Of a stretch of DNA of 64,000 bases, positions 40,834-62,198 are shown one piece after another. Below the pieces are notes generated by a model that did not search any database, was not told the DNA's origin, and saw only the letters and a list, made by a program, of their open reading frames with translations. Position 1 is the first letter of the stretch; each line of letters opens with the position of its first letter. Source of the stretch: an uncultured Candidatus Rokubacteria bacterium (lineage in GTDB: Bacteria; Methylomirabilota; Methylomirabilia; Rokubacteriales; DASRDR01); contig CAVPSB010000019.1 in the NCBI GenBank assembly GCA_963708025.1, positions 192,001 to 256,000 on the forward strand, given 5' to 3'. The translations under genes were made by a program, and so were the position numbers.

Positions 40834-41131
40834 GGGGTCAGGCCTTTCATTCTTGTCAATTCACCCCGATCGGCGATTGCCGGAGACCGATCGCCATACT
40901 CGGACCGCTCGGACAGCGACGTTTGGGGGATCGCATGCGTTCGAATGACGGCCACCCACGGGGCGTTGACATCCACCCGTGGAGCGAGCTTGGCGCGGCG
41001 CCAGACCTGGGGCTCGCGTGGTCGCGATCATTCGACGAATCGCCGATCGGGGTTCACCCCCTTGCCGGGCCGGGCGGGGCCGTGGCGGGGCCGTGAATGT
41101 TAAGAATGTTAAGAATGAAAGGCCTGACCCC
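40834..41131. mobile_element. 298-bp MITE/REPIN-like element with 21-bp perfect terminal inverted repeats, family A long form
   Basis: GGGGTCAGGCCTTTCATTCTT ... AAGAATGAAAGGCCTGACCCC; nested internal inverted repeats; no transposase. Confidence 0.75.
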
Positions 41132-58887: not shown

Positions 58888-59703
58888 ATGGGGCGTGTCC
58901 TGCTCTACGCGGCGGCGCTCGGGCTGGCGGCCCAGGCCATCCTGCCCCTCCTGTGGATGCTGTCCACCTCGCTCAAACCGCCGCGCGAGGTCTTCGCCGT
59001 GCCGCCGACGTTCGTCCCGGCCGCCCCCACGCTGGCGAACTTCGTCCGTCTCGCCCGCGAGACGGCCTTCCTCACCTACTTCGCCAACAGCGTGCTGGTG
59101 GCCGGGCTCACCGTCCTCCTGACGATGGCGGTGGGCGCCGTCGGCGCCTACAGCCTCACCCGCTTCCGCTTCCCGGGCCGCGAGGCCTTCGCCCGGCTGA
59201 TCCTCTGCACCTACATGTTCGCGCCCATCATGATCGTTATCCCGATCTACATCCTGGCCCGGCGGCTCGGCCTGGTGAACACGCACGCCGCGCTCGTCCT
59301 CTCCTACGCCTCGTTCTGCCTGCCGTTCTCGCTGTGGCTCCTGCGCGCCTTCTTCCGGTCGATCCCGCTCGAGCTGGAGGAGGCGGCGCTCGTCGACGGG
59401 GCCAGCCGGGGGCGGGCGGTGGTCCACGTCGTCGTCCCCCTCGCGCTGCCGGGGGTCATCGCGACGTCGATCTTCACGTTCACGCTGGCCTGGAACGACT
59501 ACATCTTCACCCGCATCCTGGTCGCCTCGGACGAGCTGAAGACGCTGCCGGTGGGCGTGCAGGACCTCTTCTCGGCGGCGGTGGTCGACTGGGGGCTCAT
59601 CATGGCGGCCGGGATGCTGATCACCATCCCCGCCCTCGCGTTCTTCATGGCGGTCCAGCGCCACCTGGTCGAAGGGTGGGGGAGCGGAGGACTCAAAGGA
59701 TGA
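58888..59703 (+). CDS. Carbohydrate ABC permease 2 (alternative start 58843)
   Basis: TSLKP, SIPLELEEAALVDGAS, AWNDY, KTLPVG, GGLKG. Confidence 0.92.
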   Translation: MGRVLLYAAALGLAAQAILPLLWMLSTSLKPPREVFAVPPTFVPAAPTLANFVRLARETAFLTYFANSVLVAGLTVLLTMAVGAVGAYSLTRFRFPGREAFARLILCTYMFAPIMIVIPIYILARRLGLVNTHAALVLSYASFCLPFSLWLLRAFFRSIPLELEEAALVDGASRGRAVVHVVVPLALPGVIATSIFTFTLAWNDYIFTRILVASDELKTLPVGVQDLFSAAVVDWGLIMAAGMLITIPALAFFMAVQRHLVEGWGSGGLKG

Positions 59704-60644
59704 CGATCCAGTTCGGCTGGTCGCTGCAGGGCCGGGGTCTCCTGGCCGGCCGGGAGGCCATCACCACGCTGGCGAAGCGGGCCGACGCCCTCGGCTACGA
59801 CTCGGTCTGGGTCACCGACCGCCTGGTCATCCCGACCGCGGGCACGACCGCGTACCCGTACTCGGCCACCGGCGGTTTCCCCATCGGCCCCGACGAGCCC
59901 TGGCTCGAGGCGCTGACCGCCGTGACCTACCTGGCCACGGTCACCGAGCGCATCCGGGTGGGGACGAGCGTGCTGGTGATTCCCTACCGGAACCCGATCC
60001 ACACCGCGCGGGCGCTGGCCACGGCGGACTACCTCTCCGGCGGCCGCGTGATCCTCGGCGCCGGCATCGGCTGGTGGCGCGAGGAGTTCGCGGCGGTCGG
60101 CGCGTCCTTCGAGGATCGGGCCGCGCGGACGGTCGAGGCACTCCGGCTGATGAAGCGGATCTGGACCGAGCCCCGGGTGACCGTGGCCGGCGCCGGGGAG
60201 GTGGGCGGCCTCCGACCCCAGCCGGTCCAGCGGCCGCACCTGCCGATCTGGATCGGCGGCCACAGCGACGCGGCGCTCCGGCGGGTGGTGGCGGTGGCCG
60301 ACGGCTGGCACCCGCTGGGTCTCCGGCCGCCGGTCGCGCTGCACCCGCCAGAGCTGGCCGCGCGGGTACGCCGGCTCGGCGAGCTGGCCGTCGCGGCCGG
60401 CCGCGATCCGGCGTCGATCACGGTCGCCTTCAAGGCCCCGGTCCGGTTCGACGACACCGCCGGCCCGGGCCGCTCCCCGCTGGCCGGGTCGCCGGCCCGG
60501 ATCGTGGAAGACCTCGAGGCGTACGTGGCGGCCGGCGTCCGGCACTTCGTGCTCGACTTCTCGGTGACGACGCTCCCCGAGATGCTCGGCGTGCTCGATC
60601 GCTTCGCCGAGGACGTTCGACCCCGTCTCGTGGGCTCACGGTGA
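59700..60644 (+). CDS. LLM-class (possibly F420-dependent) oxidoreductase
   Basis: LGYDSVWVTD, TERIRVGTSVLVIPYRNP, LSGGR, PIWIGGHS, ADGWHP. Confidence 0.9.
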   Translation: MTIQFGWSLQGRGLLAGREAITTLAKRADALGYDSVWVTDRLVIPTAGTTAYPYSATGGFPIGPDEPWLEALTAVTYLATVTERIRVGTSVLVIPYRNPIHTARALATADYLSGGRVILGAGIGWWREEFAAVGASFEDRAARTVEALRLMKRIWTEPRVTVAGAGEVGGLRPQPVQRPHLPIWIGGHSDAALRRVVAVADGWHPLGLRPPVALHPPELAARVRRLGELAVAAGRDPASITVAFKAPVRFDDTAGPGRSPLAGSPARIVEDLEAYVAAGVRHFVLDFSVTTLPEMLGVLDRFAEDVRPRLVGSR

Positions 60645-60680
60645 GAGCGCCAGAGGCCGACGGCGGCTCAGCGGCGCCCG

Positions 60681-60763
60681 GGGGTCAGGCCTTTCATTCT
60701 TTACATTCCTTGCGCGGTCCCGGCGGGGAGCCGGAGACTGTCACGAATGAAAGGCCCGACCCC
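60681..60763. repeat. 83-bp REP/MITE-like element, family A short form (copy 1)
   Basis: GGGGTCAGGCCTTTCATTC..GAATGAAAGGCCCGACCCC. Confidence 0.9.
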
Positions 60764-61392
60764 ACGCCGGGGCGATAGCCGGCCGCGATCGCGGCGACGC
60801 TGGAGCGCGGGGTGAGGACCGTGACGATCGCCTCACCGGGGCAGTCCCGGGGCGGTCCATATCCAGCGGGTGACCAGGGCCGGAGGGTGCCCTGCCACAC
60901 CAGGAGTGGATCGGCGGCGCCGGGCAGCGCGACGATCACGCCGTCCGGCAGCGTGCCGAGCGTGGCGCGGAACGTGTGCTGCCGGCCGTCGGAGCCGAGC
61001 CGATCCCGGTGGAGCTCCCGGTCGATGGCGGCGATCGGAGCGCCGGGATGGAGACCCCGATCGGGGTTCCCGGTGAGCCAGGCGGCCTTGAACCGGCGGT
61101 AGTCGGCCCGGCGGCACTCGCCGCACGGGCGGTGTCCAGCGGCCAGCGCGGTGGCCTCGTCCAGGAAGAAGAGCTCGGTGTACCGCCCGGGCGTCATCAC
61201 GGCCCGCCGGCGCCCGCGGAAATCCAGCCGACACGTCACCCAGGCGCGATAGCCGGCGGCGACCCGGCGGACGATGCGGCGGGACGCATCGTGGAGCCGC
61301 CCCCGGTTCCCCATGAGCGTGCCGCGGGTGGAGACGGCGAGAAGGTCCCCGAAGGGGTCCCCGCGGTTCTGCAGCGGGGTCAGGCCTTTCAT
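60694..61392 (-). CDS. Conserved hypothetical protein with an Ada-like metal-binding motif; both termini lie inside family A repeats
   Basis: PLQNR, MGNRG, WVTC, YTELFFLDEATALAAGHRPCGECRR, VLTP. Confidence 0.8.
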   Translation of the reverse strand: MKGLTPLQNRGDPFGDLLAVSTRGTLMGNRGRLHDASRRIVRRVAAGYRAWVTCRLDFRGRRRAVMTPGRYTELFFLDEATALAAGHRPCGECRRADYRRFKAAWLTGNPDRGLHPGAPIAAIDRELHRDRLGSDGRQHTFRATLGTLPDGVIVALPGAADPLLVWQGTLRPWSPAGYGPPRDCPGEAIVTVLTPRSSVAAIAAGYRPGVGSGLSFVTVSGSPPGPRKECKE

Positions 61393-61458
61393 TCTTTACA
61401 TTTCTTGCGCGGTCCCGGCGGGGAGCCGAAGACTGTTAAGAATGAAAGGCCTGACCCC
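61376..61458. repeat. 83-bp REP/MITE-like element, family A short form (copy 2)
   Basis: 78/83 identical to 60681-60763, same orientation. Confidence 0.9.
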
Positions 61459-61460
61459 AC

Positions 61461-62198
61461 TTACCAGATCTCGGCGGGGATCGGGAGGCTCCGGAGGTCG
61501 GCCTCGGTGAGCGGCGCGTTTGGCGTGATGCCCACGCCGCCGAGGAGGGCGTGGATCTGGCGGACGTGCTGGGCGGCGTGCCAGGTCGTGCGCTCCAGCA
61601 GGTCGTGCCCGCTCTGCGGGCCGTAGTAGGTCTCGACGAGGCCCTCCCACGCCCCGGGCCGGGCGAACCACTCGGCGAGTCGGCGGCGGACCGTCTTGCC
61701 GTAGGCCGCCACGGCGGGTCCGTCGGCCACCTCGGGCGGCGCCGCCTCGTCGAGCCACGCCTTCGGCAGGCGCCGCGCCGCCATGGCCTCGGGGAAGGCG
61801 AGCGCCAGCCGGAACACGTGGTAGCCGAGCTGCCGGATCGAGCGGTCACGGCCCGGGTGGGCCAGCTCCAAGTGCTCGGGCGGGACCTGGCGCATCGCCT
61901 GCGCGGCCAGGTCGAGGATCCGATCCAGGCGCCGGGCCAGCTCCGGCGGCGCCAGGCGGTCCGCCGCCTCGTACGGCATCCCGACCAGCGCCGCGAGCGC
62001 CTTCGGGTTCCAGCCATGGACAACGCGATCGCCAATGACGGTCGCCGGCGGCCCCGGTACGCCGAGACGGGCCAGCTCCGCGCGCGCCGCGGGCCGCGCC
62101 TCGACGTCGATCGCCTCGAACGGCACGTTCCACGACGCGAGCAACTCTCGCGTCTTGGCGCAGGAGCTTCAGCCGGGGCGGAGGTACACGGTGACCAT
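61461..62198 (-). CDS. Probable selenoprotein: glutaredoxin-like (UxxC) + DinB-like domain fusion
   Basis: GAGGTG RBS, ATG 62198, MVTVYLRPG-TGA-SSCAKTRELL in frame with ORF 61461..62144; Grx VPGPPATVIG; DinB-like RSIRQLGYH and WHAAQHVRQ. Confidence 0.85.
62130..62158 (-). promoter_or_regulatory. Bacterial SECIS-like hairpin
   Basis: mRNA: UGA-N10-CCA-A-GACGCGAG-[AGUUG]-CUCGCGUC-G-UGG. Confidence 0.7.

Follow-up and report, generated by a model that had tools for sequence, protein, structure and literature searches.

How does a gene come to lie between two copies of the same palindrome, taking its start codon from one and its stop codon from the other? This question is raised by a short ORF of the minus strand in the 64,000-nt stretch of DNA analysed here (the window). 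A preliminary description of the locus saw in it a minimal repeat-gene-repeat cassette, i.e. a gene captured by REP-like elements or a circle that had integrated at a resident repeat. We describe below the locus, the family to which the repeats belong and what relatives reveal of its history, and then weigh this proposal against other explanations. The family of repeats flanking the gene is called E and the genome that holds the window G000.

The bracketed gene and its two palindromes

The palindromes are direct repeats of 83 nt each, located at 60681-60763 (left copy) and 61376-61458 (right copy). As reported in the preliminary description, they have the same orientation, are identical at 78 of 83 positions and abut the ORF between them; when the trailing 'AC' is counted, the identity is 94% over 85 nt. 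Each copy has the inverted ends GGGGTCAGGCCTTTCATTC / GAATGAAAGGCC(C/T)GACCCC, and six occurrences of the 19-nt arm were counted in the window when up to three mismatches were allowed, against 0.01 expected from shuffled sequences. Folding as single-stranded DNA gave -34.2 kcal/mol (z -10.7) for the right copy and -25.2 kcal/mol (z -5.4) for the left copy, and the right copy folded with its flanks as RNA gave -64.5 kcal/mol (z -9.4). The arms of the right and left copies differ at three positions, at each of which it is the left copy that departs from the consensus of E. Both copies have GT directly before them on the minus strand.

The bracketed ORF runs from 61392 to 60694 on the minus strand (232 aa; native part approximately 60764-61375) and is abutted by both palindromes with no spacer. 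It starts at an ATG within the arm of the right copy, which is the only plausible ATG; the arm-borne sequence ATGAAAGGCCTGACCCC together with the next G encodes MKGLTP, and LQNR follows. At the other end the last 22 codons and the stop codon are supplied by the left copy, where the frame reads GSGLSFVTVSGSPPGPRKECKE before the stop. The coordinates of this ORF thus bear out the earlier statement that start and stop come from different copies. Equally accurate was the placement of the stop codon of the upstream gene (61461-61463) 2 nt outside the right copy. This co-directional gene (61461..62144, minus strand, 227 aa) encodes a protein with matches to glutaredoxin-like and DinB_2 domains (DinB/Grx hereafter). 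On the other side, a convergent gene for an F420-dependent luciferase-like (LLM) oxidoreductase occupies 59700..60644 of the plus strand (start approximate, stop at 60642-60644). The 36-nt spacer that separates the left copy from the LLM stop (60645..60680) holds on its minus strand a TGA (60670-60668), which is probably the stop codon that the bracketed gene used before the insertion.

Since both junctions are bridged by contigs of other public sequencing runs, the arrangement is not an artefact of one assembly. The junction between LLM and the left copy was recovered in contigs of X1 (195 nt, 4 differences) and X7 (162 nt, 1 difference), and that between the 5' end of the gene and the right copy in a contig of X2 (158 nt, 2 differences). 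This survey covered Logan contigs of the four best public runs, from which rare variants are dropped during assembly, and none of these contigs spans the whole stretch. Within that scope, none of the 15 joints listed of a total of 20 skipped the 695-bp unit. One contig of X6, diverged by about 6%, joins 61441 to 60989 in the middle of the gene, skipping 451 nt and carrying GAGA in between. The breakpoint at 61441 is situated 18 nt into the right copy, in its outer arm. The contig would be a deletion allele in a related organism with one end in E.

The bracketed protein belongs to an uncharacterised family of very large size, whose members are typically 206-235 aa long; all 8000 scored candidates of the homologue search were significant. 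The residues C54, H87, C90 and C93 are invariant, and the family has a GHRPCxxC motif. In this region an Ada-like motif had been proposed. The likeness was recovered as a match to PF02805 (Ada_Zn_binding; residues 74-94 only, E 0.0016), but with 18.8 bits against a cut-off of 23 the match was below threshold, so that the motif stands only as a weak resemblance. The protein had no match in NCBIfam and no structural match in the PDB at E ≤0.001 (Foldseek), and its matches in the ESM Atlas were exclusively clusters of 'hypothetical protein'. In the AlphaFold model (mean pLDDT 70) residues 1-73 were poor and only residues 75-210 were predicted with confidence. It is probably a small metal-binding protein. 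The gene is present in a single copy in G000. E contributes five extra residues at the N-terminus and a tail of 22 residues at the C-terminus. The core of the protein is intact, since all family-invariant residues, the last of which is P208, precede the insertion of the left copy.

A family of palindromes at the ends of genes

G000 comprises 8.17 Mb in 49 contigs (71% GC, 99.67% complete). It contained 66 arm matches at up to three mismatches, which correspond to approximately 36 copies of E: 29 paired elements (61-94 nt, one of 298 nt) and seven single or half-degenerate arms. The view that the repeats are REP-like, present in many copies and probably mobile was right. In each element a variable centre is enclosed by two conserved arms, each about 27 nt long. 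Arm positions 1-19 are almost invariant (56 arms), and the centres vary both in length (7-40 nt beyond the 27-nt arms) and in sequence. A single arm of 29 nt does not fold by itself (-0.1 kcal/mol, z 0.21; 65 of 200 shuffles folded as well). At the stem position with two common alleles the base pair is kept in 21 of 28 elements. The 298-nt variant is also found in the window, at 40834..41131, 4 nt after a stop codon; between the same arms it has a non-coding centre of 260 nt that extends the palindrome. The extra length could be ancestral, or it could stem from an insertion into the loop of an E.

Median identity over all 378 pairs of elements was 0.74 for the whole element and 0.50 for the centre, and no more than two pairs had a shared centre. 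One of them is the studied pair, with identities of 0.94 (whole) and 0.93 (centre); as had been anticipated, the two copies are closer to each other than to the rest of the family, and they are sisters. The other pair (C32:81055-81134 and C32:177168-177247; 0.93 whole, 0.92 centre) is separated by 96 kb and its contexts are unrelated: one copy follows a dienelactone hydrolase gene and the other lies between tsaD and a histidine-kinase gene. The existence of two pairs with shared centres indicates that whole E units get copied. The studied pair is one of two recent sibling pairs in G000. After it, the next-closest two copies of E are 5.7 kb apart and have unrelated centres. A check for further genes flanked by these repeats had been suggested, and the arm catalogue of G000 contained no other gene bracketed by two E copies.

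Coding frames were judged by their third-position GC, a heuristic devised for this analysis. By this criterion, 22 of the 36 elements have the stop of a long frame 0-15 nt outside one end, and in 11 of these 22 the frame abuts or overlaps the end. In four of the 36, a frame enters E and stops inside; the genes concerned encode ThiG, an MFS transporter, a class-V aminotransferase and the protein studied here. In nine cases the last base of an arm directly precedes the ATG, GTG or TTG of an ORF of 141-708 codons, in the form ...GAAAGGCCTGACCCC followed directly by ATG. In half-elements the retained arm is the one towards the downstream start codon, again ending in ...GAAAGGCCTGACCCC with the ATG directly behind. 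Because so many copies abut or hold the starts and stops of genes, the donation of start and stop codons is a habit of the family and not a peculiarity of the bracketed gene.

E has unremarkable operon genes for neighbours, for instance sdhA/sdhB, thiG/thiE, solute-binding protein/permease and tsaD/histidine kinase. Among 33 flanking proteins scanned, 29 had Pfam families and none was a transposase or recombinase. At C12:462832-462925 an E lies between sdhA and sdhB, flush with the ATG of sdhB, and at C7:45729-45800 another lies between thiG and thiE, with the thiG frame ending inside it. Essential sdh and thi operons evidently tolerate a hairpin of about 80 nt between their cistrons.

The distribution of E is narrow. 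A 17-mer arm pattern with 52 matches in G000 was without a match in a further 120 genomes of the order. Among 185,579 species genomes (one per species) there were 46 scattered single matches, about as many as chance would produce for 17 fixed bases; the exception was one unrelated MAG labelled Candidatus Binatia, in which E-type elements were paired. In this MAG, L161 and L172 carry paired-arm elements of 129 nt with the same type of arm (GGGGTCAGGCCTTTCA...), and one centre is common to both copies, unlike the situation in G000. As their flanks partly match in reverse complement, the repeated unit may be longer there, or the contigs may be redundant. The sdhA-sdhB and permease-ATPase junctions were each found without E in four sister genomes; one such junction reads TGA-tcc-ATG, and its counterpart in G000 is TAG-gt-[E]-ATG. 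Target-site duplications were not visible at any copy, neither in the flanks of 29 copies nor when filled junctions were compared with empty ones. By these comparisons E is specific to its lineage and has the behaviour of an insertion.

The preliminary description had called for a cognate Y1/HUH nuclease. No match to the Y1 transposase/RAYT family PF01797 was obtained in the 99.67% complete G000; run as a control, the same search recovered PF01797 from 6 of 14 known genomes. Tn3-type transposases (PF01526) gave no match either. Five genes of G000 belong to PF01609 (DDE_Tnp_1), none of them at a catalogued arm, and DDE_3 was represented by one fragment below threshold. An autonomous element with E ends was not found either, since no arm pair in G000 is more than 400 nt apart, with the reservation that an insertion sequence could be missing from an assembly of 49 contigs. 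The ends of Tn3-family elements begin with GGGGTC, as do the arms of E; a Tn3-type origin was rejected on the lack of a PF01526 match in G000 and of a 5-bp duplication. An IS630-type origin was likewise dismissed, with nothing but the DDE_3 fragment and no TA duplication to its credit.

Signals for transcription were sought as well. Arms contain TGTTAAGAT, which resembles an extended -10 element, and many contain TTGACA, but the spacing of these motifs was inconsistent across copies and the consensus scan was empty; a promoter within the arm was therefore rejected, and the scan for sigma-70-like consensus sequences gave no promoter-like site at the locus. A terminator with a U-tract was not convincing (one terminator-like site against 0.5 expected). 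No Rfam family matched the hairpin at threshold; the best match reached 30.6 bits where the gathering score is 110, and two matches to microRNA precursors far below threshold were discarded as chance.

Order of events at the locus

In three sister genera (represented by G002, G003 and G001) neither the bracketed gene nor E is found between the LLM and DinB/Grx genes. The two genes are convergent there, and their stop codons lie 1 nt (G002), 43 nt (G003) and 230 nt (G001) apart, compared with 816 nt in the window. The DinB/Grx fusion gene itself was present in all 21 genomes searched of the taxonomic family. In other genera of this family the homologue of the bracketed gene is located elsewhere and without E: no arm was detected at 11 loci of relatives, nor at 80 metagenome loci (the latter with identities of at most 73%).

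The closest orthologues, P0001-P0004, are metagenomic and share 82-92% identity. Their N-termini read MKGLTPLQNR, MSRAKGLTPLQNR or MLRMNGLTPSGPLQNR, corresponding to the arm-encoded peptide M(K/N)GLTP or AKGLTP; more distant homologues start with M(x)1-3PLQNR. As the arm-encoded N-terminus is common to P0001-P0004, the right copy is old and shared. For P0002 (86% identical), one frame of the window sufficed to align residues 1-252. The protein reads GYRPGVHL straight into EAAAPDRVRAGALTASPRGEVGRPRRNDRARRASRGGSAP, and the spacer and antisense 3' end of LLM in the window translate as PGAAEPPSASGALTVSPRDGVERPRRSDRARRASRGASSP. The alignment has a gap of 25 codons exactly at the position of the left copy. 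P0002 accordingly has the same locus with the right arm and without the left copy; this reading, and likewise the finding that P0001-P0004 carry the right copy, was made at the level of the protein sequence only. P0001, the closest orthologue (92%), and P0004 end in tails of the family type, GVHPGAGSA and EVHPGAEAS.

Because P0002 lacks the left copy and yet shares the right arm, the two copies arrived at different times. The gap in P0002 likewise identifies the left copy as the later daughter of the right one, placed in the last codons of the gene. Behind the left copy the bases read GRR-stop in the frame set by GT+C, so the insertion occurred about 9 nt before the stop codon, which is a typical site for E. 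Precise excision of the left copy in the lineage of P0002, instead of a later gain in the other, is formally conceivable. For the right copy the situation before insertion is less clear. When it is removed in silico the sequence becomes TAA-GTG-CTG-CAG-AAC, and the gene may originally have started with a GTG flush with the upstream stop. Caution is needed here, as P0001 carries three additional codons (SGP) where E meets the gene; remodelling has thus taken place at this junction, and how it first read is uncertain.

These observations can be arranged into the following sequence of events. An ancestor would have gained the bracketed gene between the convergent LLM and DinB/Grx-like genes. The right copy of E would then have come between the DinB/Grx stop and the start of the gene; presumably the native start was destroyed or displaced and the in-frame ATG of the E arm took over. 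The last step, confined to this lineage, would have been the arrival of a daughter copy derived from the right one, at a distance of 612 bp and some 9 nt ahead of the stop codon; a short and variable tail was thereby probably replaced by 22 E-encoded residues and an E-borne stop. E itself would be a lineage-specific, non-autonomous palindromic element working like a REPIN or MITE, which multiplies as entire units and persists almost exclusively in the narrow gaps at the ends of genes. We regard it as probable that the bracket arose in this way, by two sequential insertions of a gene-end-seeking REPIN/MITE-like palindrome with the left copy as the later daughter of the right. The family with its contexts, the empty site in the sister genera, and the differing ages and sister relationship of the two copies are direct results of the analysis. 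We infer that an enzyme copies the units by some such mechanism, that the arm ATG is used, and that the hairpin may have a role at the RNA level in a co-transcript of DinB/Grx and the bracketed gene.

Related elements and competing explanations

In anatomy REPINs come closest to E. They are REP doublets that form hairpins and are mobilised by RAYT transposases (PMC3116915, PMC3337134). As described in one of these sources, they have two highly conserved inverted ends and a less conserved spacer, the length and pairing of the spacer matter, compensatory changes occur, and single ends are decayed remnants (PMC3116915). E agrees in its conserved inverted ends, its less conserved spacer and the hairpin formed by the whole unit, in being extragenic, multi-copy and lineage-specific, in having single ends as apparent remnants and in paired changes that keep the stem. 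It fails in two defining properties of REPINs, as the single arm of E is no palindrome of the REP kind and no RAYT was found in G000. Further differences are a copy number of about 36, not hundreds, and the exactness with which E hugs stop and start codons.

With bacterial MITEs and the Tn3-derived miniature elements (TIMEs and TIME-COMP composites; PMC4133298, PMC13367494, PMC6382973) E shares its short length, lack of coding capacity, terminal inverted repeats, dispersed copies and want of a transposase of its own. Its past mobility is visible in the E-free orthologous junctions, its absence from the 120 genomes and the two sibling pairs. What E does not share with them is a target-site duplication, an autonomous partner with the same ends (or any PF01526 match) and a centre conserved between copies. 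Two copies of such elements can flank a gene. In contrast to a TIME-COMP, the gene studied here did not move as one with its two copies.

Two further comparisons concern the use of palindromes by reading frames. Rickettsia palindromic elements are repeats that are read in frame in the middle of proteins whose conserved core stays intact. E too is read as part of an ORF with the protein core kept, but it is found at the very ends of genes, supplying start and stop. Integron cassettes are bounded by imperfect palindromes (attC) with conserved ends and a variable centre, and their start and stop codons lie near or inside the repeat. The bracketed gene resembles them in both respects. Integron cassettes, however, stand in co-oriented arrays beside an integron integrase, and no array of E was seen (only one pair in G000 is closer than 5.7 kb); its ends are GGGGTC..GACCCC and not the attC core, and its neighbours are conserved housekeeping operons.

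The explanation first proposed for the bracket was that E-gene-E, or a circle of the gene with one E, moved as one piece into the spacer between LLM and DinB/Grx, driven either by a nuclease acting in trans or by recombination with an E already resident there, in the manner of TIME-COMP units. The appearance of the locus speaks for it: two copies in the same orientation, closest to each other, bracket one gene without any spacer at a site that is empty in three sister genera, and composite units with two Tn3-derived miniature elements have been described (PMC4133298, PMC13367494). The relatives contradict it. P0002 has the gene and the right arm at the same locus without the left copy, and P0001 and P0004 keep native tails, whereas in the window the tail native to the gene is truncated by the left copy, behind which a stop codon follows after 9 nt. 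The preliminary description had itself set relatives carrying the gene at this locus without the repeats against a captured gene, and P0002, which keeps MKGLTP and is without the left copy, is essentially such a relative. In addition the gene is single-copy in G000, E pairs other than this one are at least 5.7 kb apart (and the pair at that distance has unrelated centres), there is no duplication around the unit, whose flanks ..GCGCCCG and ACTTACC.. are unlike, and the homologue loci (80 from metagenomes, 11 from relatives) are devoid of the arm. A mobile cassette is not supported by these data, and we consider movement as one piece quite improbable. A local duplication would dispense with an element-specific enzyme: the left copy could have arisen from the right by a template switch during replication or by repair provoked by the hairpin. 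This would agree with the lack of a transposase partner and of target duplications, with the distance of just 612 bp, with the GT that precedes both copies on the minus strand and with the X6 rearrangement (61441/60989), which has one end in E. Such a process hardly accounts for the second sibling pair, 96 kb apart at unrelated loci, and some 36 dispersed copies at precise gene-end positions need a dispersing mechanism; we therefore think local duplication improbable too, if slightly less so than the cassette.

Another possibility is that E is no selfish mobile element but a host-selected intercistronic RNA hairpin, which would stabilise, terminate or mark for processing a transcript and have an arm that binds ribosomes; the likeness of the two copies would then result from gene conversion. 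Almost invariant arms beside drifting centres would be expected of a functional motif, as would the stem pair kept in 21 of 28 elements, the great stability of the hairpin and the preservation, in half-elements, of the arm that faces the start codon. Yet E was not found in the 120 genomes of the order, whereas the flanking operons are conserved without it, and the operons in which it sits are unrelated to each other. The left copy faces the ends of two genes and serves no start, and the U-tract, sigma-70 and Rfam searches reported above produced no terminator, promoter or RNA family. Of all the explanations considered we give this one the least credence. One feature that sits awkwardly with the two-insertion history itself is that nearly all centres are unrelated between copies. 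This would not be expected of a family that spreads by simple copying and pasting, and copies may also have originated without transposition.

A bolder version of the two-insertion history would regard E as a new kind of mobile hairpin which homes to stop/start junctions, is moved by an enzyme outside the known RAYT, IS200 and Tn3 systems and rewrites the translational ends of host genes. This is a speculative proposal that we judge unlikely to hold in full. If it were true, nine genes starting flush with E and at least four ending inside it would be the products of a homing hairpin, and a nearby pair could be mobilised together, so that a bracket might be the first step towards a cassette even though this one was not so formed.

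The striking picture of a gene between two repeats can come from two separate insertions, and this calls for caution in scans for cassette systems. The unnamed family of the bracketed protein is worth characterising in its own right. E, for which no transposase could be recognised in the genome, is a tidy example of a small palindromic DNA that donates starts, stops and peptide tails to the genes of an uncultured high-GC bacterium, and if its enzyme or its targeting to stop/start junctions were worked out, this could give insight into how REP-like sequences spread and how operons tolerate them.
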